64,000 nucleotides of DNA from positions 3,319,320-3,383,319 of the forward strand of contig CAJINV010000004.1 in NCBI GenBank assembly GCA_905178155.1, read 5' to 3'. The position numbers and the translations under genes were made by a program. This document shows positions 9,401 through 63,835 of the stretch, one piece after another. Every line of letters begins with the position of its first letter. Position 1 is the stretch's first letter. The stretch comes from Amoebophrya sp. A120. Its lineage: Eukaryota; Protista; Dinoflagellata. The notes below the pieces were generated by a model, which was not told the DNA's origin, did not search any database, and was given only the letters and a program-made list of their open reading frames with translations.

Positions 9401-12400
9401 CCTGCTGCGCTTTCTCGAACACGGAATGCCGTTTGGACTATGAATTGCAAAAGTATCGTACTCGTATAAATGCATTACAAATTCCCTCAGCATGAGAAAT
9501 GAGATCATTTGTAAATGCGGACTTACCTTAAGAAAAGGATTTGCAATGCAAGACTTGCATTTATACGAGTGCGATACTTTTGCACAGGATATGGACACCA
9601 CGGCCTCCAGAATGTCCGCGGAGTCGGTGCGCCGCTGTATGGGAGCGTCAGGTTTGAAATCGTCAAAGTTGAAATAATTTGTAATGCATAAAATGCATGA
9701 CCCGAGGTACGTGTGTTGCAGAGCAGGCAAGTGAGGCCGATTGTAAAGCCTGTTTGGGGTTACAGCTCGAGCTGCTAAAGTAGGATGAGAAAATCACTCT
9801 TCGTTGCCTAAACAGCATGACAAACTGGATTTCGGGGCCACCGAAATTTGTCATGCGCCACTTGAAAACTGGGCTCCAACTGGCATCCATTTTATGCATT
9901 ACAAATTATTTCAACTTTGACGATTTCAAACCTGACGCTTCCATACGCTGGTGCCGTGTCGTAATCTTGAGCGCCGCTGCGCGCCGCTGCTCTTCGCTCT
10001 GTGTTCGCTGCTTGCTCTCCACAAAGCGACCCAGGGAGGCCTCCGGATCGTGGACAAACACCATGTTGTGGTGCTCCGGACCCGCCTCGTCGCGCAGGCT
10101 GCTCATCCACCCCATCAGGGTTTCTTGGTGGATTTTTCCTGCCGTCCCGTTTTACAGTGAAAAATGCCCCCACCCCCAAAGTTGCAATAATTTGTGATGC
10201 AAAGTTTCCAAGTGAAAACTTTTTGTCATGCATGAAAGGAGTGTGAATCTTTCTGATGCAGAGTCTGGGCGTATATCGCATCGCTTGCATGACAAGCGCC
10301 GCTTTTGCTAGGATCTTTTGCAATGCAAATTTTTGCTATTCACGATTGGAAATCTGTGATGCTGATAGATGCAAGAAGGCGAGTGTTTCCTTGTTTGGAA
10401 AGGTTTGCAATACAAATGCTCCCAAGTTCGGGGATCGTGGGGGCATTTTTCCTTGTAATATCCCGCCGATCTTCTTCCGGGCGCTGGTCCGCAGGGGGTT
10501 GTCGCCGAAGTACGTCTTCAACAACTGCTGCTGCTGGTTCTCCGTGATGCCCCGTTGCTTGCGCCGAAACATCTCGCGGACAAACGCCTGCCGTTGCGCC
10601 ACGGACATGTTGCGGTACTTTTGCACGGTGCTCCCGTACCCCCGCGACGGGTCGCCGTTCTCATCGCCCTTGTGGATTGCAAATATGTCTGGGTCCTCTG
10701 GAAGTCTGTGATGCTGAATTGAGCCTGATTGAAGCGCTTGCAATGGCAGCCAGGCATGACAAGCTTCAGAGACGCCTGCTGATGGTGCCTACCACGCATC
10801 ACAAATTGCGTTTTTGCATGCCCAAGCAAGCTCCTCTTTTGCTGCTCATGCAACACAGAATTTCCAGGAATGCAAGACACGCATCACAAGTTCCACTGTT
10901 CCAGACCCAGACACTTTTGCATTTGATAGCCGTCTTTCCCACGCAAGTGCTCCTCCAGCCGGTGGTTTTATCCTGTGCAAAAGTATCGCGCTCGCATTGC
11001 AATCATGCATTACAAATCTTTCTCTTGAGGTAAATCAGCATTACAAATTTGATTTCTCATGCCGAGGAAATTTGTAATGCATTTGTACGAGTACGATACT
11101 TTTGCAGTTCATAGGTTTTCCGCGTCCACAACCGGATCCGCGTGTCGCACCCGGTAGGGAGACTTGTCCTTTTCTCTACTCTTTGCACCACGACCGCCTT
11201 CTTGGGTATTACCCGCAAGAACCTTGTTCCGCTTCCTGGATCCGGGGCCGCCCGACCCGGCGCGGTACTGCATGGTTGGAAACGCACCGTACGCCGCGCC
11301 GCCGGGGCTGTTCCTGCTGGCGACCCCGACCGTCATGTCGTAGGCTGCCTCCGCGGGCACGCGGTAGGGCGACTGCCCGGCGGTGATATCAAATGCAAAT
11401 ATGTCTGGGTGTGGAAGAGTCATGCTGCTTTTGCATGACACAGAAGGTCTGGCATGGCAGCTCTAGCATCACAGGTTTCGAGAGGCTTTCGCTATTCCGA
11501 ATCCGCATCACAAATGCCCCATTTTGGTGACAGAAAGTGGGCAACTTTTGCTGCCTGTGCATGAGAGATTTTTCTGCGTTGTGGAATGCGCATCACAAGT
11601 TTGCACTCTTCCAGACCCAGACATATTTGCAATGGATAGGTGAATTCGTACCGCAAATCGCCCCACCCCGAGTGGTCGCCGCTGCGGGCCGTGGTTTATC
11701 CTGTGCAAAAGTATCGCACTCGTACTAATTGCAAATATGCATGACAAATATTCTTCCTAAGGTAAAACAGCATTACAAATCCCATTTCTCTTCGTGCCAA
11801 AAGCAAAATTTCTAATGCAATTTATACTAGTACGATACTTTTGCAATGCATATGGTTTTGCCGACGCCTACGTGCTTGCCGAGATTCTCCAGATCGTGAA
11901 AAAAGGGGCGGCTCCACGTGTGGCGCACCGGGTCCTGGGCGGTTTGCACGAAGGCACGGTGCCGGAAGAGCTTGTGGTCGTCGATCCACAAAAGCCGCGG
12001 GCCGCAGTACTGTGTTTATGTTGAACTTTAATTTTTTTATCCGCTTCACATTTTACGTACTATGAGGAAAACTTCAAAAAAATCGAAAAAGCTGCTATAT
12101 GTGAGTACAACTGCTGCAGCAAAGAAACAGATGAGCATGAGGCAATCACCTTCGTGTAAACTCTAAATACGTTTGCGATTTGGTTCCAGTAGTACGGCAG
12201 CGAGGTGATTTGCGGGTTGTTCTGGAGCAACAAGATCACCAAGTGGGTGTTATACGACAGCGGCCGCAATTGGCTGCAGCTCCTCAGCTTGTTGTTTCGC
12301 AAATCCAAGTACCGCAGCTCCACCAACGTCTCCAAATGCTCCACCTTTTCGATCTTGTTCGAATCCAGCCCCAGCTCCTCCAAGGCCTCACAGAGCAGCA

Positions 12401-37726: not shown

Positions 37727-40700
37727 TCATTCAGGAATGTTGAAGTTGCTCAAATCCCACTGCAGAACTTTTCCGTCCAACCCACAGGTTGCGAACCTGT
37801 GCGGCGCCCGGAGAATCCGCAAATCCGACACGCGTTTGGTGTGGCGCAGCTTGTTCAGGGTTTCCGCCAGGGCCGGGTTCTTCGGCATCATCCAGCTCTT
37901 GGGCTGACCCGCTTGCCGCCGTAAACGCGGCAGGCGGTCGCGGATAGAAGTCGCGGGGGCTGCTGTGGGTTGACGTGGTTCGACTGGTCGGTGGTCTGCT
38001 GATGCACTTTGCAAGAATCGGTCACTGGCTGCAGGTCGTTGCGAATTTCCTCCTCCTCCAGTAGGATTCAGTATTTTTCCGCCAGAATTCATTTGACCAC
38101 TACTGCTCGCTACAGCTTCGCCCGCCATTCTCTCATGGTCGGTGCGTAGGTGTTCGTGTGGCTGACCGGCGGCGGCAGAGGACGAGCCTCTTCTACTTCC
38201 TCCGCCGATGAGACTCCGGCGAATCGCTTGTTGCATTATACTGCCCCCATGGTCCTCGCCGGTCTCATCCCTAATGCCACCAACAGAATTGCTCTTATTT
38301 CTGGAATTCGTTATTCGCGTAAACCCACCATCATGGGCGGCTCCTTGTGCGGCGTCGTGCGGGCCACTTGTGGTCGTGGTTGTCCCTCCGCGGATCCAGC
38401 TTTTGTCGTCGAGTTGCAGGGAGACTCGCGGAGCGGCGGAAGTAGAGCTGGATTTGTTCTGCGCGACAGAACTGTTGGACGTGTTGTTCCCGTTATTCTT
38501 CTCCGGCGAGGCGGACAGACTCAGAAGGGCGGGATTGTCGTTGTTTTTCCGTTTGTTACTCTCGCTGTTCTTCTGTGGTACAAACCCCACCACCCCGTTT
38601 CGAATGTCCCCGACCGGTTTCTGGTAGATCCACTGCGCCGGGACAGCGAGGCTGTCTTTTGTAGTTCCCTGCTCCTCCATTGGCGTGGTGCACTTTCTTC
38701 TGTTCGCGAGTAGTAAGTCATTGTCATCTTCGTCCTCTCCGCGAGAATTTTTCAGTCCTCTGTTCATTCTTTCCACTTCACTTTCCTCCAACACTGCCGA
38801 GCCAAACAGACCCGGGAGCTTCAGCTTACTCGGCCCGGCCATGGGCTGCTGCGAAAGAACCTGTTCGGCGACCAAATAGCCGCCGCAGTACCAGGAGCCC
38901 GGCCCGGTTTCGTCGGCCTCGTCGAAGTAGAAGAAAACTGGCACGTAGTCGAAGCCACAGGCAATCAGGATGTTGGGCGCGAGAAAAGCGACGCAGGACA
39001 GCGGGTAGCCCGTGTAATTGATGATGTGCTCTTCCCGGGTAACCATGTTCGTAATGGTGATACTGCTGTCCTGGCGGCACACCGCGAGGAGCATGGCCTT
39101 CTGCTGGAAGGTGGCGCAGGTCACCCAGGAGTGCGCATTCCCCGCTTCCAGCACGCAGGTGCCGAACGGGGGAGCCAGTTGGGGTGGGGTTTCTGGCTGT
39201 GCAGGAGGAGGTGCAGCGGGGGTAGAACTGCTTGGGGTCGGGCCCACTTGTTCATTGCTTTGTTCTCGTTCCTGCCCCACCGCCTTCACGTTCTTCTGAT
39301 TCTCGTGCTCCGTGCCACGACTCGATGTCGCCCCGCCACCCGCGCCGGTGGCCCACTCCTCGGGTGGGGAAAGACACCCGTCATCATCGACGTCCATCTT
39401 GTCTGCAGCTGCTGCCTCCAACTCCGGAAAGAGCACGTCGGCCTCGCCAGGATTCGCGGGACGGTTGTTTGTTGAGGTTGCTCCGCTATTTTTATTGCCG
39501 CCTTGGTTCTGATGTCCTGTCGCTCCACCTGCTTTAGTTTTGCTCTCTGAAGACGTGCCGGCCGAAGCGGAATGATTCTTCACCCCCACACTACTAGCAT
39601 CCCGGCCCGCGAACGTACTGTACACTCGCGCGGATTTATCAGCCCCGCCTACACAGAGGAACAAATTGCCGCACCACGCCAGCGCCGTGATCGGGTGCGG
39701 GCCGTGGGCCCCCTGCTGCTGCTGTTGGGAAAACGAGAAGTAACTTGACATTGAGCCGCCACTGCGCAGCGGGACACTAGAGCTCGGCTGTTGCAGCGAG
39801 ATGCGCCAGGCGGACCACACGTCGCCGCTCCGTTCCTGCCGCCGCGTGCACACCACGCACTCGCCCGCGACAGTCGCGACGGCGAACCGCGAGGCATCGG
39901 GCGACCATCGTGCGCACACGCACCCGTATAAACTGCAAAAGTATCGCACTCGTATAAATGCATTACAAATTTTAATTTCCTCAGCATGAGAAATAAAATT
40001 TGTAATGCTGATTTACCTTAAGGAAAACGAAAAGATTTGTGATGCATGATTGCAATACGAGTACGATACTTTTGCACAGCATAACCCGAATTCCACGTCC
40101 ATTTGCACCAGCTCCGGCTGGTAAACATGCTCCTCGTTCGGAACCGGATAGTACAATTGGTGGTGGTCCCCTCTGCTGTCAATATTCCGCGGGTCGTGGT
40201 GGTCCTCTGATGTACTTCCGGCTTGTACCAGCGCCAGCTCGTCGCTATTTGCTGCACTGGAAGTGGAAGAACTATGTATGGTCGTGGTCATACCGCCTCC
40301 ATACGGCGGCGCCCGGCGCCACACGTAGGCGCACCTGTCGTGGCCGCACGAAACCAGCCAGCCAAAGCGGTTGAACTGGTATCCAATGCAAACACGTCTG
40401 GGTCTGGAAGAAATTTGTGTTGCTAATATTGACTGCGCAGCAGAGTGGCCGCTTGTACGGCACAACAGCATGAAAAGTTTTTATTTCGCGGCTTCAAGCA
40501 CATTAATTTTCATTCTAATTTAGCAGCACAAAATACGACTTAACATGAAGAAAGAGGTTGCAATAATTCCTATTCCAATCTACGCATCACAAATCTTGTT
40601 GTCCTGCGAAGCTCGCATCACAAACCCAAATCCACACATATTTGCACTGCATAACTCGAAGTCCGCGACGACGTCCGCGTGTTCCTTCAGCACCGCGAAC

Positions 40701-41949
40701 CGATATCCATTGCAACTATGTCTAATTCTGGAAGCTTGCAAAACTTATCTATGCAGTTTTTCCACGCTCCACAGAGTCTGGAATGCAAGCCTGCGCATCA
40801 CAGGTTCTGCACTTTCTTGGTCGTTGTACACGTAATGCCTATTCTCCATGCGAAATTCCCTCTCAACAGCATGGCGAGAAGTGCAAGTGGGCATTATTGT
40901 ATTTACAAGTTGTCACGCATGCCAGATTTTTGTGTGACCCGCACCGCGCATCACAAGTTCGTTCTTTTTCGGAGGACCCAAGAAACATATTTGCAGTGCA
41001 TACCCGGCTCCACTCGGCGAAGCGGTAGCGGTAGACCCAAATCTCGCTCGTGGACGGGGAAGTGAGGGCCATCGTGTCCTCCCCGTGAAAAGCCAGCCGG
41101 CTGACCCCGACGGTAGTCGCCTTGCTTGAGAACACGCGTAGTGGCTTATTGAAAGGAAAAATCCCCCCTCCCCATATCAAGACGAAGTTTCTCATGCTGG
41201 ATTTCCGTACATAAATGCGCGCTGTCTTGCAGTAAGGCATCGCCGCCTGATCCTCAGCCTATGTAGGGGCGTTTGGGTCTACGTCTAGTTGTTTAGCATT
41301 AGAAACGGCTGTCCCCTAGGCCCAACAGCATGCCACATGGCTTCCATAATTAATGGCGCGGAGGCCTCTGCACTTGTCCTCTGGCAAGACAGAAGTTGTT
41401 TGTGGTCTCAAATCAGCAACACAAATTTTCGGAAGCATACCTTTTCGATGTGGGGAGGAGGGATTTTTGCTCTCAATACGGCTCTATGCATTGCAAAAGT
41501 ATCGTACTCGTATAAATGCATTACAAATTTCCTCAGCATGAGAGATAAAATTTGTAATGCGGATTTACCTTAAGATAAAGATTTGTAATGCATGACTGCA
41601 ATACGAGTACGATACTTTTGCACAGGATAGGCTCCACCGCACAGACCAGCTCTTCGAGTTCTCCGAGGTATCAAGTGTAAAAATGTCTGGGTCTGGAAGA
41701 ATCCAACTTGTCATGCTGATTTTGGATTCTAAAAAAATCTGTATTGCATGAGCAGCAAAGGGAGTCCAAGTTTTGCTACACGGGAAGAGCATTTGTCATG
41801 CAGTACAGGCATCAGGAAGCCCTCACAAAATCTGTGATGCGAGGGCATGCGTCACAGTTATCAGGAGTCATGCAAAATGTGCATGACAAACCTGGCAATC
41901 TTCCAGACCCAGACATTTTTGCATTTGATACGAGGTGCTGCTGGCTCAT
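37727..41949 (-). CDS. ARPC1: ARPC1 (Arp2/3 p41 subunit)-like WD40 protein with 6 introners
   Basis: Rejoined SPSTSEIWVY..LKEHADVVAD..LVSCGHDRCAYVW..YQPELV..RWSPDASRFAV..PFG..SWV..QDSSI..PLSCVAF..ACGFDYVP..H..FATCGLDGKVLQWD follows the ARPC1 motif order as I recall it. Confidence 0.7.
39927..40083. mobile_element. Introner family B
   Basis: Family B TIRs; TSD acccg. Confidence 0.92.
40380..40653. mobile_element. Introner family C-like (diverged)
   Basis: tatccaatgcaaacacgtctgggtctgg..ccaaatccacacatatttgcactgcata; TSD actgg/actcg. Confidence 0.85.
40704..41002. mobile_element. Introner family C-like (diverged)
   Basis: tatccattgcaactatgtc..acatatttgcagtgcata; TSD accga/cccgg. Confidence 0.83.
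41147..41478. mobile_element. Introner family F
   Basis: TIR tattgaaaggaaaaatcccccctcccca / tggggaggagggatttttgctctcaata; TSD tggct/cggct. Confidence 0.9.
41485..41629. mobile_element. Introner family B
   Basis: Family B TIRs; TSD ggctc. Confidence 0.92.
41669..41930. mobile_element. Introner family C
   Basis: Family C TIRs; TSD cgagg. Confidence 0.92.
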
Positions 41950-42877
41950 CTTGTTTCATCTTCGCGATCAAAAAAAACGCGGCTCAAACAAAATTTGCGC
42001 TATCAGGTTCTGAAACTATCACTGTGAATGTACTATCACACCGCGCGTGCATGCGCATGCCGTACAAGCAAAATAAACTGCAGAAACTGGTGCATAGAAG
42101 AATAAAAGCAGTGGCCCCTGTATCTTCATCACTCTTAATACCGGATTACAAAATTACAACTTACAACTTCGGGTTCTTCGTTGTTTGTGTCAGGTACAAC
42201 TACGTGCTTTAGGACTAAATTTTGCGTTGTACTGAAGTAGAAGTTTGAAGATCCGTAGAAGGCAAGAAACGCTCTTTGTGAAGAAAAGCTGCGGCTTTGC
42301 TTTCGGGTTGAGAGCACGGAGGACTGTGTGGAATGACGCTTGGTGAACACAAGTGCTGCTGGCGTTACGTCGTTTTTCAGCATCTCTTTCTTCTTCGTCT
42401 GTGACTGCAGTTCTTGAAATCGCTGCGCGTCTTTCTGGTGCTGTTTGCGCACTAGTAAAGCGAACTCACTTGCCACTGCTGCAGAGGCCTCACCTTCTGG
42501 ACACGCCTATTAGTATTTGCAACGCCAGTATGTTTTTGTCTCTGACGGACTAGTAGGATGGTTTTGTTCCTAATTTGCGACGTCAGTCGTGTTTTTATAA
42601 ACATTTTTGCTTCAAGCTTGATTTCCACAAGGTTTAGCCGAAGCCGGGCATACTTGGCACTTCCTGCTTGTTGCCTAGCGCACTTTGAAGGAGGAAGTCT
42701 TCGTTTCATCATCTTCGGCTGCTGGTCTTCCTCGCATCAATTGCAAAAGCGGGCGCCGTCTAGTTTCAACACAAAAATGCGCTCGTCCTCGTGCTTATGT
42801 ATGATCAGGCGCAGTAGTACTTACCCATACGGACGCCATCGTCGTGTGAACGAAAGGAGGCCCTCGTTACCCTACTT

Positions 42878-45463
42878 CTAGTTGTATATCGCCACTGTAT
42901 TTATTCCCTGGTCCAAAGCCGCCCTGGCCCGTAGCGCAGCCTGCCGATTTCGTCTCCTCCACCTCCTCGCCCGCACGTCCTGCAGCACAACCTTCCGGTA
43001 GCCGCCCTGGAACGCCGGTAGCGCTACGTACTGCTCGGTATGCATTGCAAAAGGATCGCTATTGCTATTGCACTCGTTCTCGTACAAATTGCATAAACGA
43101 TTTTGCCAGAAAGAAAATTCAAGTTTGTATATGCTGATTTACCTAAGAGAGAGGATTTGTCAATGTCATGCATCACCGCAAAAATTACTACGATGCTTTT
43201 GCAGTTGCTACTTAGCGTGCGGCGACAGTTCGTCCACACGGTGGACGTGCTCGTGGCCGGACAAAATCCCTACAACCGGACCCTTCGGCGAGAGGTAGTC
43301 GGCCAAAATCTCGCGCGCAAACCGCTCGGTGGACGGGAGGTTGCCGCTTTTCGGCCACCGCTCCCGCTTCTCCACGTTGTAGCCCGTGTCGTGGGCCCAA
43401 CCGAATTTCCGGTCCCCACAGAGGATGAACTGCGTCCGCTGCTGCGCGCCGCTAGGGTTCTGGACCAGGTCAGGATTCGCCTGGTGAATTTGAGTTTTTT
43501 CAATCATGAATAGATGTATCTAAATTAATCTGAGAGTCGCCGTGGCCGACGTGTCACTTCATCCTTGACACCGATGCACGTGGTACCTACCGGTAATAAA
43601 GAACAACGAATAGGTATAGGTATAAATACATGCAATCCGTAGTGCATGAGCAACAGGGTCGGCCGGTTTCGCTGCAACTGTGCCACCACCGCCTGTCTCG
43701 CCTCCTCCCGCACTTGCAGATCCGAGTTGTCGATCGCGACAATCTATCCTGTGCAAAAGTATCGCACTCGTATTGCAAGTCTTGCATTACAAATCTTTTG
43801 TTACAAGGTAAATCCGCATTACAAATTTTTTTTCTCACGCTGAGAAATATGTATTTCTCATGCATTCAATGCATTTATACGAGTACGATAGTATTGCAAT
43901 TCATACAATCAGAAAGGGACCCAGCTCGGCAACGGACACTGGGGACTCCGTTTCCACTGTCGTTATTGGGAAGCTGTACAGGTGGTTATCCGGTGGTGGG
44001 TAGGTGGAAGCATAAGCATTATCGTCCGGAGATGAAGATACAAGAACCATATCGCCCTGCTGTGCCTGCGCTGATGCACTGCTAGTTGCACCAAGATCGT
44101 CGACTACACCTCCCTCAGTGTGCAAGTAGATGTCGGCTTGTTGTTGTTCCCCCGGTCGTTGTATCCTATCAACAGAAACAAGCTGCTGTCCGTCTTCTTC
44201 AGCCTCTGGGGAATTTCGTGTACTACCGGTAGTTGTACTCCCAATCATGCCTCTCCGAAAGTATCCTCTGTTCATTCGCAGTGATTCTGCAGTCGCGTTT
44301 CTGTTTCGGTGGTGGTGATACAGCATCAGATTTTTCACCAGTTGCGCAGGAGGAGCCCGTCCTGCCCCACTGAACGAGCCACTTTGATCTAGCATTTCAT
44401 CTGCATCTCCTGCTCCACCAGCGGCAATAGCTTCGCCGTTTTTAGAAGGACTGCTTGATGCCATAGCTGCTCCTCCTCCTCCAGGCAGCGTCGCGAGAGG
44501 ATCATTTTTTCGTGATGTGTCCGAATTATGCGTATGCACTGCATTGCTCCCGCCCCGACCTCCAAATGCAGCAACCACAACCGGCTGTCCAAAGCTGGCA
44601 AACAGAAGCGGTTTCAACACGTTTTCGTAAGCAGTCTGCTTCTGCAACAACAGCGGCTCCTGGGGCTTTCCCTCGGTCATAAAGTCGTGATTGCCGCCCG
44701 TGTAGAGAAACCGAATATCGTGTTTCCGCAACTCTTCTAGCACCCATTCCACCGCGTTTGGTTGGGGAAAGTTGAACAGGTCGCCGCCGAGCAGCAGCAG
44801 GTCTGCGTTTTCTCGTTTGTACAAATCCAGCAACTTCTGAAACGTCTCGCGGGGGTTACTGGTCCGCGCTCGCGAGCTGCTAGCTGGAGCAGCTGTGTCA
44901 GTGTCTACACGACCTGTTGGTTCCGTCAAATACACGTTCTGCGCGTTCCGAAATGCGTTGTCCATCCGCTGGTTAAACGGCCGGTCGCTATCGGTTAAAG
45001 GCATGTTCAAATGTACGTCGGTTACGTGCAGGACGGTCCACTCCCGGTTCTGCCTGGAGGTTTTGTCGTTATCCTCCAAAGAAGATGAACTGCGCCCAGA
45101 CGAAATGTCGTACACACTGGACATCGTCGTAGATGCTGCACTTGTAGTTTTGCCAGCCCCCGACGTCGTGCCTGCACCGACGATCAGTTGTGAAGCAGAC
45201 GCTGCGTTCTCACTTTTTCCTCGTTGCGCTGCTTCAAATCTATCGTGTTGATGCACCAGCTGCGCCGCAGTTGTTCCTGGTGCATCGAAAACCACGATTC
45301 GCGCGTTGAGCTGGTCGGTGTTTGTGTGGTTGGCGCGAAAGTGGAGCTCGGGGTGCGGTTTTTGGTCGAGTTGTACTTGGTCCGCCTTCACGAAAAATAT
45401 GTTCGTCGCCGGTCCACCTCCACAGAAGAGTAACACGACGAACGAAAACAGCAAAAGCTTCAT
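42878..45463 (-). CDS. Secreted calcineurin-like metallophosphoesterase
   Basis: Signal peptide MKLLLFSFVVLLFC; motifs VTDVH, GGDLFN, GNHD, LLLMH, SGHEH. Confidence 0.85.
43039..43210. mobile_element. Introner family B (diverged)
   Basis: tatgcattgcaaaaggatcg..cgatgcttttgcagttgcta; TSD ctcgg/cttag. Confidence 0.8.
43745..43905. mobile_element. Introner family B
   Basis: Family B TIRs; TSD caatc. Confidence 0.92.
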
Positions 45464-46578: not shown

Positions 46579-49151
46579 TTATATCACGCTTGTTTCTGGC
46601 TTGCCGCGTGCCTCATCCAATTTTCCTGAGTGCAGGATTTCCCGTTGATGTAGTACGCGGACTTCTCCACGTCGCGCACGGTCACTTTGCCCACACCGTG
46701 CGGAACGCCCTGCGCCCACTGTCCCGAGTACTGCTTGTTTTCGCGGGTCCTGTTGGATTCTCATTTCAGTTTCATCCTATTGATGTACTTCTACTTCCTC
46801 TACTTCCTAGATTTTCATTTCAATCCTGCAGCATAGAGATAGGCCAAGCTGAGAGTTGTATTTAAGTAACAATCGTTAAGTATTTCTTCAGCACTTGGAG
46901 GCTCCATCAAAACTACAAATTTTACCACGAGAGCGTCCCTTCACCGTGGCGCAGCGAGTCCACAAACTGCCCGACGTAGAAGTTATCCAGGAAAAAAACT
47001 GTGTAAGTGTAACTGTGTAGCGAGAATAGCATCACAAATTCGCTTTGCATTGCAGGGAAGACCTGACATGCGCAGCTAGTACGTGGAAACACGTGTGAGT
47101 GTAGCCTATGAAGCAGACCCAGCATGACAAGTGTAACAGTTTCGCACTTTCTGCATCACAGACTTACACTCACATAGTTTTTTTCTTGCATAGAAGTCCC
47201 CGTTGGAATACTGCCACTTCCCCTGCCCGTGCTGGGTATGAATTGCAAAAGTATCGTAGTCGTATAAATGCATTACGAATTTCATCTCCAGCATGAGAAA
47301 TAAAATTTGTAATGCGGATTTACCTTTAGAAAAAGATTTGTAATGCATGATTGCAATTACTACGAGTACGATGCTTTTGCACAGGATACTGGGCGTTGTC
47401 CAGGAATTCCCCCACATACACGCCCTCATCGTCCGTGAGCCGGCCGTGGCCGCAAATCACGTTGTCCCGCAGCTGGCCCTCGTAACTGCTATCCAAGTAG
47501 AAAGAAGGGATGTAAGTGCATAGACACTTTATTTTTCGACCAACATTCCAGCTCTGAGTGCAAAAACCTCTCATGCTCAGACAGTATGTGAGAACGCCTT
47601 TGAATCATGGGTTTATATACTTATTGGGGCCTACAAAAATGCATGACCAGCATGAGAGACCTCCAGACGAAGCCATCTTGCATTTTGATTTTGCTGCGCA
47701 TCTTGAAGTTACAGTAACAATCTTTTTCCTTGGATAACTGCTATCCAAGAAAAAAACATTGTAGGTGCAACTTTTTTGGAGGAACAGCATTACAAATTCG
47801 TCTGGCATGACAGCAAAAACCTGTCATGCGCAGATAGCACGCGAAAACGCCCTTTAGTGGACGCTGCGATGCATGCTAAGCATGACAGACGCAATCATCT
47901 TGCATGTTGCGCATCACAAATTTACACCAACAATCTTCTTCCTTGGATAACTGCTCCCATCCGACCACTGGTACACGCCGTCGCCCTGCTTCATATGGAA
48001 CTGTCAGGATTGGAATCGCTAAAGTTGAAATAATTTGTGATGCCTAAAATGCAAGGCGCAGAGTGACTGTCTTGCAGGGATTGCAAGTGAGGCCGATTGT
48101 GAGCAGCGTGTTTCGGGTTTGGGATAGAGCTGCTAAAGTAGCATGACAAAGGACGCCTTCTTTCGCTAAACAGCATGACAAACTGGAGTTCCATGACGTC
48201 AAAATTTGTCATGCGCCGCTGGAAAATTGGGCTTCCAACTGGTATCGTTTTATAGATATACAAATTTTTCAACTTTGTCAATTTCAATCCTGAAAGTTCC
48301 ATACTTCACCCCCTTGACATAGTTACCCTTGAAAACGGTCTCGTCGTCGAACCATGTTTCGCAACCTGTCGTGCAGCAGTTTTTCAACATGCTCAATAGA
48401 AGTTGTACGAAGAACCATGCACTCCCTCACAAATTAAATGCAATCTACTCTCTCAACATGTCATCATAGATTGATACATGTTCGTTGTGTTCGTCGCCGT
48501 CCTCATGCCCTTGGGCGTAAATTATGATTAAAAAAATTATGACAAAAAAATATAGCGATACGAATGAGAACTTGTTCTACCGAGCCCGTGCTTCTCGCCC
48601 GCCAGCCAGTTTCCCTTGTACTCCCCCGCCGTGTCCTTGAACCAACCGAGACCGTGCGCTCGGTTTTCCTCCCACTCTCCCTCGTAAAAGCCTGCGGGGT
48701 CCACGTACGTGTACTTGCCCCATCCGCTTTTGAAGTTCCCGCTCATCTGCCTGATCGTTGGTTTTCATTCACGATGGCAGTGCTCTGTTTTTTCTATTTG
48801 CATAGTTCTTATCATGTCATGCATTTATTTACTCAGCAACTACAGAACCGTCAGGAGTACTTCTATACTCATTACTCAAGCACGAATATCAGGATCATGT
48901 GAATGACGACCGCACTAGTACCCTTCATAAGAGGTCCCGTTCGGATTGGCCCGGGCCACATGGTTGTTGACCTGTTTGGCCTTGACCCTGTCGCCGTACT
49001 GTGCTCGTTTTGTGTCGTAATCCTCTTGGAGCTGCTTGACCTTGACCGCAATTTGGTCGACCCGATCGAGGCTGTCTTCCAGCGCGCGCTCGTCGTTCAA
49101 GATCTCATTGCTTTTGTCGCACACCGCCTGGCAGCACGCCGAGTTTCCCAT
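46579..49151 (-). CDS. MORN-repeat protein with N-terminal acylation-like motif; 3' end approximate
   Basis: MGNSACCQAVC start; repeats such as YEGEWEENRAHGLG, YKGNWLAGEKHGLG, YQWSDGSS|YEGQLRDNVICGHG, YVGQFVDSLRHGEG. Confidence 0.85.
46984..47192. mobile_element. Introner family D
   Basis: Family D TIRs; TSD gaagt. Confidence 0.92.
47237..47388. mobile_element. Introner family B
   Basis: Family B TIRs; TSD ctggg. Confidence 0.92.
47490..47736. mobile_element. Introner family D-like, first of a tandem pair
   Basis: tatccaag..cttggata; TSD actgc. Confidence 0.88.
47742..47949. mobile_element. Introner family D, second of a tandem pair
   Basis: tatccaagaaaaaaacattgtaggtgcaa..caatcttcttccttggata; TSD actgc. 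Confidence 0.88.
47994..48303. mobile_element. Introner family A (reverse orientation)
   Basis: Family A TIRs; TSD cttca. Confidence 0.92.
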
Positions 49152-55610: not shown

Positions 55611-58600
55611 TCACTTCGCCCCGGTCTGAATGATTTGACACAGCTCGCCGATATTGTTTGCCTTGATCGCCTGGCGACAGGCCTGCACGTATCAAAATGA
55701 AAAATCCCCCTCCCCATATCAAAACGAAATTTCCGATGCTGGATTTGTGTACACGACAAATGCGTTTTGTATTGCAGGAAGGCATTGCGGCCAGATACTC
55801 AGCCTAGGTAGAGGCGTCTCGGTCTAGCTGTTCAGAATGGCAAACGGCAACGGCTCCCCTTTAGGCCCAACAGCATGACAAATCGCTTCCATCATGGGGC
55901 GGAAGCTTCTGCCCTTGTCATCTTGCAAAAAAAATGTGATTTCTGACCTCAAATCAGCAGCACAAACTTTCGGAAACATCCCTTTTCAATATGGGGAGGG
56001 GGAGATTTTCCTTTCCATAGCACGGTGCGGGACTTGGCGGAGCCGCACCGAAGCCGCCCGGCGTTCTGCAGTGCTTGATTCACCTTTTTCAAATGGGACA
56101 GAAGCTCTTGGTAGTTCCCCGCGCGCTTTGTGTGTTCCGCAATCATGTCCCCATTGGTGTTCTGCAGCACCTGGTACGCCCGTCGCAGGTTCTTCATGTC
56201 CGCCAGAATGCGGTAGTCCTCCGCCTTCACTACCAACGCCTTTACCAGGTTCTATGGAATGCAAATATCCCTGGATGTCTGGAAGGTTGCAACTTGTGAA
56301 GCTGTCCTTGGAAGCTAAAAAAATCTGTATTGCTTGACCAGCAAGAGGAGTTCAGTTTGTGCTAAGCGGAGTGGGCATTTCTCATGCGGAGTACGCATCA
56401 GAAGGCCCCTTAAAAATCTGTGATGCTAGGGCATGCATCACAGGCATCAGGAGTCATGCAAAATATGCACGACAAACCTGGCAATCCCAATCTTCCAGAC
56501 CCAGATATAGGTATTTGCAATCCATAGGTTCGAAGAGTCCGCAATTTCCGCCGTCAGTTTCAGCCGCGTGGCGTTGTATCAAGAGGAAGAATCCGCCCTC
56601 CCCATATTGAAACGGAAATTTCTGTTGCTGCATTTGTGTACACAAATCAGCTCTGTATTGCAGTGAGGCACTGCAGGCAAAGCCTAAGCCTGCTTAGAGG
56701 TGTTTTGGTGTAGGTGCTTAGCATTGCAGAGGCCTGCCATGTAGGCGCAGCAGCATTACAAATCGCCTGCATAGAAAGGCGGATTCTTTGGATTTGCCCC
56801 CCTGCAAGAGAGACAGGATTTGTGGTCTCAAATCAGCATCACAATTTTTTAGATAAAGCATACTCTTTCAGTATGGGGAGGAGGGATTTTTCCTCACAAT
56901 ACGTTGTGGCCCTCGACTTGCTTCAAAATCCTGGTGTATCCTGTGCAAAAGTATCGTACTCGTATTGCAATCATGCATTACAAATCCTTCTGTTTAGGTA
57001 AATCCGCATTACAAATTTTATTTCTCATGCTGAGGAAATTTGTAATGCATTTATACGAGTACGATACTTTTGCAGTTCATATGGTGAGCTCCTCCAGTTC
57101 CGAGGGAAAGTGCGCCGCAGCATCCAGCTCCTTCACCTGATTTAGTTTTAGATTTTCATTTTGAACATATTCATAATAATCTGCGACGCATAAAGTGCCA
57201 GGTGCAAAGTGCCTGTCTTCCTTGCAGAGCAGGTCAGTGAGGGCGATTATATATACGCCTGTTCGGGGTTAGAGATATTAGAGCTGCTACAGTAGCATGA
57301 CAAAAGATGTGCTCTTTGCAAAACAGCATGACATCAAACTGGATCGATGGAGGCGCCACTAAAATTCGTCATGCTCCAGTTAGGAATTGGCCTACCACCT
57401 GGATCTTGGCGTCGATTTTCTGCATCACAAATTATTTTAAGTATGTCGATTCTGACACTGACGCTTCCATATCATAACGATAGCCATAGCCTGTAGTACC
57501 TGTAAATGCTGCGTGAGGTCCTCTATAATCTCGGCCGCCAATATCCCACGAAAAAGTGTTACAGTTACACATGTGTTGTCAATTCAGCAACACAAATCTT
57601 CTCTGCATGAGAGGGAGAACTTGCAATGCACAGACCATAAGGCAAAACACAGATGAAATGAAGCTCGGATGCAGTTCTGGCATGCCAGAGGTTGTCTATC
57701 ATGCTGGGCTTGCAACGCAATGTGTAACTGTAACACTTTTTTCTCGTGATAGCCAACTCCAGGTCGTCGGTGCAGGCGACGAACTGGAGCTCGTGTCCTT
57801 AGTAAAAAAGTCCCCACCCCACAGTCAAGTTGCAAACTCTGCAACACAAATCCGGGAGTTTTGGCAGCCATGCATGACAAGTTCGTCTTTGTAGTGTAGT
57901 GCAGGTATTACGAATTCCAAAACAGGATTGGAAATCTTCAATGCTTCTCATGTAGATGCGCATTTAGAAATGTTCCTGTCATTGCAAATCTGCATGACAA
58001 CTCTGGTGTGGGGACGTTTTTGCTCAGGATAGCTCGTTGCGGTTGTTCGGGCTGTCGGAGGTTTCCAGCAAGAGCGCCGTTTGCTTCCGTAGGGAAACAA
58101 ACTGGCACTGCAGGTGCGCGTTGGAGTTGCTCGGGTTCGGGTTCTATCCTGTGCAGAAGTACTATCGTACTCGTAGTAATTGCAGTTATGCATTACAAAT
58201 CTTTTTCCTAAGGTCAATCAGCATTACCAATTCCATTTCTCATGCTGAGGAAATTTGTATTGCGATTTATACTAGTACGATACTTTTGCAGTTCATAGGT
58301 TCTTTGCGTTGATAAAATTCTTTGCGAGCCATTGCCAGATGCGGCTCGCGGTTATCCAGGAAAAAAACTGCGTGAGTGTAAGTTTCTTGGAGGAATAGCA
58401 TCACAAGCTTGCTCTGCATGACACAGAAAACCTGTCATGCGCAGCTAGAACGTGAAAACACGTACGAAAGTTGCTTCTGATGCATGTCCAGCATGACAGG
58501 TGTAACAGTTTTGCATTTTCTGCAACACAAAGTTACACTAACACAGTTTTTTTCTTGGATAGCAGTGACGGGAAGAACAATCTTCACGTTGCCGGCGGGC

Positions 58601-61600
58601 CGGCGTAGCTTCCCCTCGGTGACGAAGTGAAACATGGAGAACTATCCTGTGCAAAAACGAGTGGTCCTCACCAAACTGCTAATAGCTGTCATGCAAAATA
58701 ATTTTATCTGCATGCTTGAAATGTCTCTCTTCATGCGGAGCCCGATGTTGTTGACGCGCAATTTCTAGTGCTGTTTTGAAATTCGCGATGCTCGAATCTT
58801 CAGCATGAGAAGCTAGTAGATCTGTGACGCTGCTGCACTAGCTCAACGCGATTGAGTACAACATTCCGAACCCAAACTTGATGTCAGGCGCAAGAGCAGC
58901 CAAAGCTCCCTGTTGATTTGATTTGCAGATAATTTCCAACTTGACACCTATGGGGTGGGCAAGTAGTTTTTGCACAGGATAAGAACTTGGGCAGCATCAC
59001 CGTCTGCTCAAAGGTGTGGTACTGCTCTGACGTGGCGGACACGCCACAGTAGCAGTGGATCTTCATGTGGATTTCCGCGTTCTTGGTCGCACTGATGGAA
59101 ACGGAGTTTTCGTTTTTCGCGGGCGCGAAGTGCGTCAACTGCGCCTCCTGGTCCTCAAAGAGGTGTTCCGCGTAGATCACGCACCCGCGGATCACGCTGT
59201 AGTTGTTCGTGGCTAAGCGAAGCCGCATATCGTATGTAAAAACGTTCCCACCCCAGAGTCACGATGGTGATTTTATTGCTACACAAATCAACAAGTTTTG
59301 GCTGTTTCGCATGACAAGTTTAGACTCGTAGCGTAGTGCTGTTTGAGGTAGTGCAGCCGCATGACAAATGGACTACCTTATCCTGATTCCAGCATCACAA
59401 ACTTCCAGATTGATAGCATGAGAAAATGTCTCTCATGGGGCTGCGCATAAGAAAAATTTTAGTAGGTAAGTATGCCATTTTGCAATACAACTCTGGGGTG
59501 GGGACGTTTTTACACAGGATACCGCAGCCCGTCGGGGCTGGTTTCCAAACTGACCTGCAGCTTGGTGTCCGTGGGGATCAGACCCGCGCGCCCCCCGGAC
59601 TCCTTCATCTGACGGATCTGCTCCTGAGATATGCAATACAAATTTCCCGTACATGTACAAGATGCATCACACCACTTTGGGGTGTAAAACTTGTCATGCT
59701 AAACTAGGAAAGAAGACAAGTTCTGCCAAGCAGAGACCGCATTTGTACGTGAACGGGAAATTTACTGTGGATATGAGAATCGAGAATACAATTTGTAGAG
59801 TTAAAGCTTTTGGTATCACTAAGAATGATCTTGCAGGATCATAAGAAAAACAAATTCAGAATAGATTTTGCAGCGATGTAGACCACGAGAGTTGACGAGA
59901 GAAGCGAAATCAAAAACAAACCACAGAAGAGCAAAAAAGAAACAGATACGTCGAAGCTTTTCAGCTCGTTCTGCAGGTCTTGTCTTTCCGCGAGCATCGC
60001 ACGATACGCCTCGTTGTCCTCCTCGGTTTTCGTGTCTGCCGTCACGAGACCCATGTTTTTCTCCGCTTTTTTCTTTTTTTCCATCGATTTGGCCGCCGCG
60101 GACGAGGCACTGGCCCCGCTGGCCGCGGCCTGCTGCTGCTCCGCTAGAAACCCGTGCACCTCGCCGGTATTCGTGATCGCGATGATGTTTGGCATGCCGT
60201 CGTTTCGGTACCTGCCGATCACCAGTGAGGACATGTTGTTCGCCGCCAGCGTCTCCTTGAACAGGATTTCGCCCGTCATCTGGTTTCGGACCTCCACCTT
60301 CCCGGTCGACCACCCTATCACAACGTGCCGAATCCCGCCCGAGGCGCCCTCCAGCAGCTTCAGCCCCCGGACCTCGTTCTTCGCCGCCACCCGCCAGAGC
60401 CTCTGCGCCCAGTTCCCGCCCGCCTGAGACATGGCCAGACTGGAGCTGGAGGCCGAGGATCCGCCCTGGACCATTTTGTAGACGCCGACAGTGCCGTTTT
60501 TCAAGGCATAGGCGAACATGGTGGAGGAGATGCACTCGAGGTGGGTGACAATGTCCACCTCGGTTAGGGGGCTGCCCACGGAGGAGCAGGAACCTGGTTT
60601 AGAAGTTGATGTATCAATCTTGAAGGATCTTGTTTTACGCAGATTGAGAATCCTTTGCAAGTCTACACTAAACTCGGCAATCTATGATCGCTCATTTGTG
60701 AATCGAATCTCGTCCTCCGGGAGCTGTGCAGTGCTGAAGAAGCTAATGCTCATCTACATCAACATCTTGTAATCCGATGCATGACAACGATTTTCATGTA
60801 GTTCTCTGTACCTCCCCGTAGCGAAAACGCTGCGAGCTCGTTGTCCTCCGTGGCGACGAGCGTATGAGAAGGAACAACTCCGCCTGATACTCCCTAGAGG
60901 CATCTAGTTTCACAAGAAGCGAATCAAAGAAAAAAGCGCATACGCGTTCGCGTCGGGTCACTGCATAGCTCGACATCCGATCTACATAATTTGCACTTGC
61001 ACTTCCTTGTGCCATAATGAGAAACGCGAATGAGGATCAGTACATCTAGTTGTACAACTAGATCACACTCATAAAGAAAATCCGCGATGCAATCCGGTCC
61101 TTCTGCGAAGGCCACCGCCGACACCGTGTCGCCGACCACGGACCAGAACAGCTCTGACCCCTCCTGATCGAACCCCTGGACGCTGCAGTGCCCGCCGACG
61201 AGGCACACGGGGCCAAACGGCTCGCGCCGCCCGAACCGGAGACGGGTGCAACCATCGTATCCTGTGCAAAAGTATCGCACTCGTAGTAATCGCAATTACG
61301 CATGACAAATCGCCTTCCTAAGCTAAAACAGCATGACACATTCCGTTTGTCATGCTAAGGATCTTTGTAATGCAATTTCTACTAGTACGATACTTTTGCA
61401 TTTCATACGTCGGTAACTTCCTTCATGAACAGCTCAGAATTGTCCTCGATGTCGTACCTGGTGTTGAAAAGCGAGCGAGAGAATGTTTGTCATGCAAAAA
61501 TGAAATGGCACGCCCAAGCTCTCATGCATGACAACCAACATCAAATCGTTTTGGGCTAGAAACAATAAAACAAGCCTTAGTAAACTAGTATACGCCATGA

Positions 61601-62263
61601 CATTCGCGGGGGTCCCGACGAGGATGACATCTCGGTCCGGATTTTTCTCCGCCAAAGGCCCAACCGCGATGTCCGTATATGCAGTGCAAAAGTATCGTAT
61701 TCGTAATCGTATAAATGCATTACAGATTTCCTCAGCATGAGAAATAAAATTTGTAATGCTGATTTACCTTCAGAAAAAGATTTGTAATGCATGGCTGCAA
61801 TACGAGGACGATGCTTTCGCACAGCATACCGTAATCTTCTTGTTGATGTTCAGGTACTGCTGGTTGGCTGGGCTATCAAGTGCAAAGATGTCTGAATCTG
61901 GAAGAGTGCATGTTTGTGATGCTTGTCTGGCATGACTCTTAAATCTGTCATGCACATTACCCAAGAGCTCCATTTTTCTGCCATGCAGAAACGTACTTTG
62001 TCAACATGCAGAATAGGCAACACCTAGAAGCGCAGAAACATGTCATGCTGAGCCACCACTTGTGGCCTCATCATGATACACCGCCCACCATCACAAGTTT
62101 CCAGACCCAGACATCTTTGCAACGCATATGGGCTGTGGATCAGCACTTTCCCGGCCGAGGTCGCGGCGGCCAGGTAGGTAGTGTCGCTGTTGGACTTCCC
62201 GAGGACGCAGAGCCCATCGAACACCTGGTTCTTCAGCGAGAACTGAAAGGTGGAAGTTAACAT
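55611..62263 (-). CDS. BBS2: Bardet-Biedl syndrome 2 protein (BBSome subunit), 13 introners plus several GT-AG introns
   Basis: [127 protein letters not shown]. Confidence 0.95.
55690..56019. mobile_element. Introner family F
   Basis: Family F TIRs; TSD gcacg. Confidence 0.92.
56253..56526. mobile_element. Introner family C
   Basis: Family C-like TIRs; TSD ggttc. Confidence 0.9.
56577..56901. mobile_element. Introner family F
   Basis: Family F TIRs; TSD cgttg. Confidence 0.92.
56937..57081. mobile_element. Introner family B
   Basis: Family B TIRs; TSD tggtg. Confidence 0.92.
57176..57471. mobile_element. Decayed family A element lacking its left TIR, inside GT-AG intron 57137-57499
   Basis: Body resembles 9638-9945; right end ctgacgcttccata; tcata at 57171-57175 and 57472-57476. 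Confidence 0.75.
57542..57751. mobile_element. Introner family D
   Basis: Family D TIRs; TSD gccaa. Confidence 0.92.
57794..58031. mobile_element. Introner family E
   Basis: Starts TGT; family E TIRs; TSD gctcg. Confidence 0.9.
58145..58297. mobile_element. Introner family B
   Basis: Family B TIRs; TSD ggttc. Confidence 0.92.
58353..58561. mobile_element. Introner family D
   Basis: Family D TIRs; TSD gcggt/gcagt. Confidence 0.9.
58643..58981. mobile_element. Introner family G
   Basis: Perfect 16-bp TIR tatcctgtgcaaaaac; distinct body; TSD agaac. Confidence 0.9.
59228..59521. mobile_element. Introner family E
   Basis: Family E TIRs; TSD ccgca. Confidence 0.92.
61258..61407. mobile_element. 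Introner family B
   Basis: Family B TIRs; TSD catcg/cgtcg. Confidence 0.92.
61678..61828. mobile_element. Introner family B
   Basis: Family B TIRs; TSD ccgta. Confidence 0.92.
61874..62128. mobile_element. Introner family C
   Basis: Family C TIRs; TSD tgggc. Confidence 0.92.
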
Positions 62264-63835
62264 CCTGTTCGTCGCAAGGCGGGGTCGGTGTAAGTCTAAG
62301 AAGTACTTGTTCTTCTACCTAGAAGGCTTCAGGCTCCTCGTGTAGGTACTTAGTTCTCCTCGGACCACTGGTATGGTAGCTTTTGTGTGCTCCTGCTTGA
62401 GCACAGGAGACCACACGCTCCAGTTTTTCTCCACTCGTCGTTCTGTGCGGTAAAAGGAGCTGTCTGTGGTACGTCTAAGTAGTTCTTGAAAAGCTATTGA
62501 AAACTGCGAAGCCGGAACGCCAACGCGCGATTCGGTCTTATTTCCCACAGAATCGCCACGGAGCAACACGTTGTCAACCGGGTACGTGTAAAATACGTTG
62601 TGGTTGTCGTGGCCGACTTACTTACTACATCACGTTCGAAATACTTCAACTTCTTCACGACGGCATGAAGGTGCTGTTTGCTGCGGTCTCTCTCGGTCCT
62701 TTCATCCGACAGGCTTGTTCCGTGGTATCTTCAACTCCCGCCCTTTTTCGCGATAATTGTACGCCAGCTGGTGAGTCCGTGCCATTGGCGCGTGTTTCAG
62801 TTTGGTGTTTGATAAGTGCTCCATCTCAAAACGAAAACACCGAAGATAAAGATTCATGTATTTTCCGCGCATACAATAGTTCTCAGAAACTCCTCCTTTT
62901 ATCTCCCGCTCCGTACACCCTTGCCGCAGGTCCAGATGCACTCTGGTGTTGTAAAAACCAGTTCACTAGTAGTAACTCGCGTTGTGGCTTGCTGAGCCAG
63001 CGGCCGAAGTGATTCTTGGCTTTCCTAAGCTCATTCTATCTTCCTTGGTTGCTGCTCCGAAAAGTCAAAAAAGCACCGAAGTCATTTGCGGCAAGGAAGA
63101 GCAACCTTCCTGCCCGTCTTCACTTATACGAATGCAGTAAAAACACCATTCATAGAAGAACAGGTGCTACCAGCTTTGTTCGTTCATCTCCCGAAGCTTT
63201 GATACGGATTGGAGCGATTCTGCACCTCCTGGATAGGAGAAGCGGAAGCAGAAGCCCACCAGTCGTGTCCGCAAGTGTGAACTTTGAATTTTTTGCTTTA
63301 TTGTTCCATAGTAGATACATTGCATTTTTTTTCCAAAAGCACCTTATCCACAACAATTTTTCATCGCACCGCCGCGGAGAAAATGGATATAATTCGATTA
63401 CGTCGGACAGTCATCTTCATGATTGTGATTCACCATCGCAGTGACCACAGTCAGAGCACCCTCCAAACGCTCCACTAACATGGCTCTAGTAGTAATTTGT
63501 GTGGCATCTGTGCTCCTGTCTCCCCGCAAACTTGTTCCCCCTCGAATTTTTCCATCCCCCCAACGGCGCGGATGTGTCAAATTATGTCAACAACGATTTC
63601 AAACTAAGAATCTTCACGGAAGATAATCTACTCTTCCCAGTTCTGTTGAATGTAATAAGCAATAAACTTCAGTTTTTTTCGGTCTATCCACTTTGCTAGG
63701 TTAGTTGAATGTAATAAGCAATAAAGTAGTGTTTTTTCGAGGAATCGAGCATCCTGTAATAGGGTAAGTACAACCAGGCCTATTGCAGCAGGAATCATCA
63801 AGCATGGAATCTAGTGATATAATAGCTGCTATCGC

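Follow-up and report, generated by a model that had tools for sequence, protein, structure and literature searches.

How are two introns removed from a transcript when the elements they derive from inserted 1 nt apart, and is anything between them an exon? The question is raised by two introners, F and B, in a 64,000-nt stretch of Amoebophrya sp. A120 DNA (the window). A120 introners have been described as carrying TAT + ~7 nt + AAA inverted repeats (8–20 nt) and short border repeats (3–5 nt), as forming families and as having non-canonical borders; how tens of thousands of non-GT-AG introns are removed, apparently without a U1 snRNA, is left open in section 16 of the same paper (PMC7789003). 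An earlier note on this DNA had read the 6 nt between F and B as a micro-exon of 1–6 nt, reduced to one nucleotide by a fixed splice register, and had proposed that each element defines its own ends. We regard the pair as a natural test of the unsolved splicing mechanism of Amoebophrya, since it separates the two simplest rules: cuts at a fixed distance predict introns of 150 and 337 nt and single-removal intermediates, whereas repeat-guided joining can yield one intron of 487 nt.

The elements of the window are 109–339 nt long, have TAT..ATA inverted ends and 5-bp target-site duplications (TSDs), and are spanned by long ORFs on the minus strand. We curated 52 of them, leaving aside one at 57175–57471 whose end is missing and one truncated at the edge of the window; the element finder returned 0 hits on 3 shuffled windows. 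F and B (Table 1) are unrelated, with 33% identity. F has 2 further copies in the window at 71–76% identity (3 of the 52 curated elements) and B has 14, the best at 94% (15 of 52); the nearest F copies are 76% identical in the window and, among the matches listed, 88% in the loci of a relative. All four ends fit TAT + ~7 variable nt + at least three A, and the terminal arms are complementary at 13/16 positions in B and 14/16 in F.

Table 1. Features of the F/B pair, its host gene and the neighbouring introners (positions in the window)
Feature	Positions	Strand	Length	Remark
Introner F	41147-41478		332 nt	TAT..ATA terminal inverted repeats
Introner B	41485-41629		145 nt	TAT..ATA ends; family of 15 copies in window
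Downstream TSD copy of F (AGCCA, transcript sense)	41142-41146	minus		Last base, 41142, kept in joined contigs
Spacer (GAGCCG, transcript sense)	41479-41484	minus	6 nt	Downstream TSD of B + upstream TSD of F, 4-nt overlap
Host gene, ARPC1-like (Arp2/3 subunit 1) WD40 protein	37727-41949	minus		907 aa after five joints
First exon piece in contig X3	41931-42007	minus		Likely start codon at 41949
Exon upstream of B	41630-41663	minus	34 nt	Includes upstream TSD copy of B, 41630-41634; joints 41142->41630 and 41663->41931
Exon downstream of F (first WD40 blade)	41004-41142	minus	139 nt	
Neighbour introner	41669-41930			Removed as element+5 (267 nt)
Neighbour introner, TSD 3/5	40704-41002			Removed as element+5 (304 nt); cut after TSD letter 1 to 4
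Neighbour introner, TSD 4/5	40380-40653			Removed as element+5 (279 nt); cut after TSD letter 2 or later
B-family introner	39927-40083			Removed as element+5 (162 nt)

In forward letters the spacer reads cggctc. F is flanked by TGGCT on the left (41142–41146) and CGGCT on the right (41479–41483), which are 4/5 identical, and B by two copies of GGCTC (41480–41484 and 41630–41634), which are 5/5 identical; the two 5-bp TSDs overlap and the insertion sites lie 1 nt apart. The earlier note had placed the end of F at 41478 and the start of B at 41485, assigned them to separate families and explained the spacer as overlapping TSDs; coordinates, family copies and flanks all agree, with the qualification that the TSD of F is imperfect. 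B is likely the younger insertion, since its nearest copy in the window shares 94% identity with it, against 76% for the nearest copy of F, and only F has a TSD mismatch; on this divergence, B would have inserted into a target overlapping the upstream TSD of F by 4 nt. The terminal motifs of F are intact and B sits outside them. No register yields GT..AG for B, F or a compound F + B intron; when one register is applied to both elements, each of the 6 registers leaves both introns without GT..AG borders.

We asked what removal of the pair does to the host gene. The public model of this gene, P0001, has its best PDB matches in ARPC1B/1A (E 4e-13) and a Pfam WD40 match, and the large exon of the host protein is 100% identical to a public model named Amoebophrya sp. 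A120. With 487 nt removed, the ORF is 907 aa from the ATG at 41949, in line with the earlier claim that both elements leave in frame. The ORF is 67 aa if 488 nt are removed, 19 aa if B alone is removed and 49 aa if F alone is; without splicing, no long ORF runs from the upstream ATG. P0001 begins at an ATG at 41240 inside F, reads the last 94 nt of F as protein and lacks the 34-nt exon. A protein of a relative, P0006, reads EDLACAVDPVRLF and aligns gap-free over the F/B junction; against the N-terminus of P0006, the 17 upstream residues reach a score of 32, matched in 0/2000 shuffles, and the public N-terminus scores 11 (P 0.84). This alignment and these scores indicate that the upstream exons are real and that the frame across the pair is older than the insertions. 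We conclude that the N-terminus given in the public gene model is wrong; such pairs thus break gene models. Pfam gave no match in the two short N-terminal exons. At 907 aa, the ARPC1-like protein is more than twice as long as the solved human and yeast chains (~370 aa), and it has long low-complexity insertions.

Four runs were aligned to positions 39700–42300. Contigs came from X1 and X3, two samples of one study that are presumed to be RNA; the raw-read runs X8 and X9 gave 39 and 2 partial reads, all on introner sequence. In both X1 and X3, contigs join 41142 to 41630, skipping 487 nt in frame and forming a proline codon, CCA, with four letters that fit either side of the joint. Its depth is 9.84 in X1 and 26.5 in X3, against 0 and 2.8 inside F. 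Base 41142 is kept and the last G of the spacer (41479) is absent. The exon piece 41004–41142 shows 0 other letters in X1 and X3, and one X3 contig (record 8) runs through the exon pieces from 42007 down to 39700 across all five joints, again with 0 other letters. The nucleotide whose skipping would have refuted the earlier note is kept in these presumed RNA contigs, and the transcript, rather than starting downstream of the elements, carries both upstream exons. Among the 14 joints listed for the X1 and X3 contigs, none skips 488 nt, and none skips 150 or 337 nt, the single-removal forms that the earlier note had suggested searching for, which, if rare, would drop out of contigs. A further X3 contig, at 41155–41345, lies inside F at a depth of ~3 with 2 other letters; it may stem from F left in the transcript, from a splicing intermediate or from a nearly identical copy at another site. 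The neighbouring introner at 40704–41002 appears unspliced in X1 (depth 7.6 versus 5.4 for its joint) and mostly spliced in X3, a possible case of condition-dependent retention.

The CCA codon is what had been predicted, but it does not decide the matter: a 487-nt intron cut anywhere within the shared 4-nt AGCC gives an identical mRNA, so the junction does not prove a micro-exon. We therefore considered where the cuts can lie. The five joints equal sums of element+5, namely 162, 279, 304, 487 (150 + 337) and 267 nt. At F the cut falls after TSD letter 4 at most, and with the neighbours in Table 1 the register is bounded to letters 2–4, perhaps 3–4; that one fixed register applies throughout is assumed from the overlap of these bounds. 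The public model P0002 has K at the junction of the element at 43039, which needs letter 3 or later if that model follows RNA, and P0001 agrees with the contigs at 2/2 amino-acid-changing TSD mismatches. Most mismatches that could inform on the register through codon effects are synonymous; one stop-creating mismatch in the relative loci, among the matches listed, excludes k 0–1. No public model was found for the gene at 794–2352, which has a mismatch at TSD position 3. TSD mismatches at 58353 and 61258, in elements beyond 42300, would fix the register.

When all cut pairs were enumerated, 20 of 26 two-step pairs, with exons of 0–5 nt, and 5 one-step pairs fit the contigs, and the 6 two-step pairs that retain the last G of the spacer all fail. 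G 41479 is the only distinguishing base of the spacer, since its other letters are identical in all TSD copies. The 6-nt exon at the top of the range of 1–6 nt first claimed is thus excluded, and the range becomes 0–5 nt; that a fixed register leaves a 1-nt exon agrees with the enumeration. This exon would be a formal one, G or C; a cut after TSD letter 3 or 4 would make it C.

We favour, at somewhat better than even confidence, a reading in which F and B leave the transcript one after the other, each in a step of its own. Each cut would lie at a fixed distance from the TAT..ATA hairpin ends of the element itself. B, leaving first with one TSD, would regenerate the older, F-only transcript, which would then be spliced normally; since the product of this first step is the transcript as it stood before B inserted, the micro-exon need never be recognised. 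The two steps and their order, like the fixed register and the role of the hairpins, are our inference. The predicted fold contains two separate hairpins, with 21.6 and 31.1 expected pairs within the elements and 0.0 between the 5′ arm of B and the 3′ arm of F; the arm duplexes of B and F come to −38.2 and −47.9 kcal/mol. To this extent the proposal that each element defines its own ends is partly supported; one-step removal would give an identical final mRNA. The absence of 150- and 337-nt joints from those listed for X1 and X3 also counts against two steps, as does a published statement that splice sites vary relative to the hairpin (Fig. 3 legend, PMC7789003), which speaks against a fixed register.

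The chief alternative, which we consider appreciable but improbable, is that B, spacer and F leave together as one 487-nt compound intron, cut inside AGCC and with no micro-exon; the two tandem hairpins would then bring the outer flanks together. The five one-step cut pairs and the absence of single-removal joints fit this scheme. However, one-step removal needs an exception to element+5, since a cut at the usual distance removes 488 nt, shifts the frame and leaves the 67-aa ORF; it takes element+4 flanking bases, whereas all 4 single-element joints are +5. The outer arms also pair poorly (9/16 paired, −11.1 kcal/mol).

If host sequence set the cut, or if exact repeats guided it, the TSDs might be expected to record this. 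We compiled 371 oriented elements, 319 of 379 from the relative loci (among the matches listed) and 52 from the window, where strand calls on single elements were correct for 46 of 52. No GT/AG or other strong bias was found at any TSD position among these matches, which makes it unlikely that host sequence sets the cut. Among the matches listed, the two TSD copies of an element show 0.057 differences per site, compared with a divergence of 0.106 from the nearest family member (354 elements), close to the expectation for one free and one coding copy, with mismatches undercounted by the finder. Mismatches occur in 97 of the 379 relative-loci elements, and the best repeat length is 5 nt for 373 of them, both among the matches listed and with a finder that itself selects on 5 nt. 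The introner with a 3/5 TSD is still removed at +5. Exact TSD repeats therefore do not seem to be required for removal, since the copies diverge at a near-neutral rate, a drift that counts against compound removal. We also considered a change of upstream TSD position 5 to G, creating a GT donor, which is seen in 3/4 window cases, but among 29 mismatches in the matches listed G is upstream in 8 and downstream in 10, and we set this aside. By position, mismatches in the 371 elements number 17, 29, 12, 20 and 29 (among the matches listed), and the minimum in the middle of the TSD is a weak hint of constraint near the cut.

Spacing between introners bears on the same choice. The 51 gaps in the window include insertion-site distances (d) of 0 and 1, none at 2–29 nt and 14 at 30–59 nt. 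For the empty zone, 4.3–6.2 gaps are expected (P 0.0009–0.011 depending on fit), and the 2 gaps of 0–1 nt compare with 0.33–0.5 expected (P 0.04–0.09). Thus, the 1-nt spacing of F and B is not extreme relative to random insertion, and is unusual only relative to the observed scarcity of gaps below 30 nt. For comparison we used at least 141 loci (L001–L141) of the relative, found by motif scan and merged to 128 (475 kb); these are metagenome contigs selected by the B motif, two of which share a duplicated stretch, and they have no overlap with the unique sequence of the window. Among the matches listed there, 413 end-to-start pairs include 0 under 15 nt, 6 at 15–29 nt and ~3.4 per nt at 30–74 nt. 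A second finder, with 258 pairs among the matches listed, gave d=11 and d=21 as the shortest spacings (L085 294–690 and L018 751–1248), and a third gave 1 of 299 pairs below 30 nt, again among the matches listed. Tandem elements may also be points at which assemblies break: among the matches listed, 15 of the 1156 termini are found in the last 40 nt before the end of a locus. Introners cluster at spacings of 30–79 nt in the window and, among the matches listed, in the relative loci. A scan for nested elements in these loci gave 10 candidates, all with 4/5 outer repeats among the matches listed, that are probably chance pairings of separate elements.

The near-absence of introner gaps below 30 nt counts against ordered removal, which alone tolerates any exon length and so leaves the zone in need of a separate cause: short exons may be selected against, or insertion may leave a footprint. 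If selection is responsible, the fact that the only survivors are pairs with overlapping TSDs (d=1 for F/B and d=0 at 47490–47949) would point to compound removal, and the outer flanks of these two exceptions do still share 4 and 5 nt. Against this, among the matches listed for the relative, 0 of 413 pairs have d=0–1 where ~6.7 are expected at the plateau density, so that the relative does not tolerate such pairs freely, and the d=11 and d=21 gaps are short without being that short; in the window, the enrichment of d=0–1 over d=2–14 is weak (P ~0.05) and includes the case that the earlier note had singled out. The minimum spacing of ~30 nt between introners constrains either the splicing machinery or the transposase, and it can be measured.

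A broader form of the compound scheme can be put forward only tentatively, and we doubt it: that exons are joined by aligning short direct repeats across folded hairpins and not by distance from splice signals, that exons below ~30 nt are unspliceable and that only overlapping-TSD pairs survive, as compound introns. If true, repeat-aligned joining would follow a splice-site rule that spliceosomes are not known to use; U1 snRNA is reportedly absent from this lineage.

The tandem at 47490–47949 consists of elements of 247 and 208 nt, 59% alike, at one target, with ACTGC to the left, between and to the right and a 0-nt spacer; the frame of a MORN-repeat gene would be restored only by the loss of both. 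It provides a matched control for the F/B pair. Elsewhere in the window, three elements (10671–10928, 57794–58031 and 43039–43210, the last crossed by P0002) end in TGT or TAG instead of TAT, and element+5 removal restores frame. A BBS2-like gene (55614–62314; Pfam BBS2_Mid) holds 14 complete introners and the partial one at 57175–57471.

Two further explanations of the 487-nt joint are much less probable. Two removals with loose or element-specific registers, leaving an exon of 2–5 nt or a zero-length junction, would accommodate the 20 fitting two-step cut pairs with their lengths of 0–5 nt and have been given room by the Fig. 3 legend cited above and the legend of supplement Fig. S23; we find them quite implausible, as bounds derived from different families are compatible with a single register and every single-element joint is +5. 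Least credible of all is a joint made by reverse-transcriptase template switching over hairpins at a short repeat, or read from DNA of an element-free strain, because, for all that a 4-nt repeat and strong hairpins adjoin the joint and X1 and X3 are only presumed to be RNA, a single X3 contig spans all five joints without another letter, the joined form dominates in both runs, the restored frame is conserved gap-free in P0006 and the upstream ATG opens no long ORF unless splicing takes place.

Introners and single-nucleotide exons are already known; the overlapping-TSD pair and the exclusion zone were not found in the literature searched. That literature, where the supplement of PMC7789003 is represented by its legends, yielded neither a case of adjacent introners whose TSDs overlap nor a lower limit on their spacing, and the accessible text of PMC12130899, PMC9860276 and PMC13326754 has nothing on adjacent introners. 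F and B resemble the A120 introners of PMC7789003, as far as its accessible text describes them, in inverted repeats, end motif, direct repeats, membership of a family, non-GT-AG borders and absence from joined contigs (presumed RNA); neighbouring elements whose TSDs overlap, a lower limit on spacing and a resolved cut position have no place in that description. Nonconventional introns of euglenids offer a parallel, since pairing of terminal inverted repeats joins the intron ends and TSD-like repeats lie at non-canonical borders; they belong to a different lineage with other terminal motifs, and their accessible description includes no such tandem case (PMC11282704).

Single-nucleotide exons have been described in Arabidopsis APC11 (PMC4674806), Fusarium CYP621A (PMC12940212) and placozoan cox1 (PMC5436844). 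As in APC11, one base between two introns would be needed for the frame, and the APC11 paper, in its accessible part, also proposes intron definition with introns removed one after another (PMC4674806). The APC11 base is bordered by the canonical AG and GT, does not occur in the flanks and was demonstrated by substitution; at F/B, by contrast, the borders are non-canonical, two transposon insertions would have created the exon, and all TSD copies contain the same letters, so that the origin of the base cannot be read from the mRNA. Fungal stwintrons are U2 GT-AG introns that consist of an outer intron with a splice signal interrupted by an inner one, and their intermediates have been shown (PMC5587772); unlike these, F and B lie side by side, the ends of F are intact, there is no GT..AG, and no intermediate is among the contig joints listed. 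In the two-step reading that we favour, the F/B pair would nonetheless resemble the accessible account of stwintrons (PMC5587772) in its neighbouring introns with a 1-nt offset, removed in consecutive steps of which the first creates the substrate of the second.
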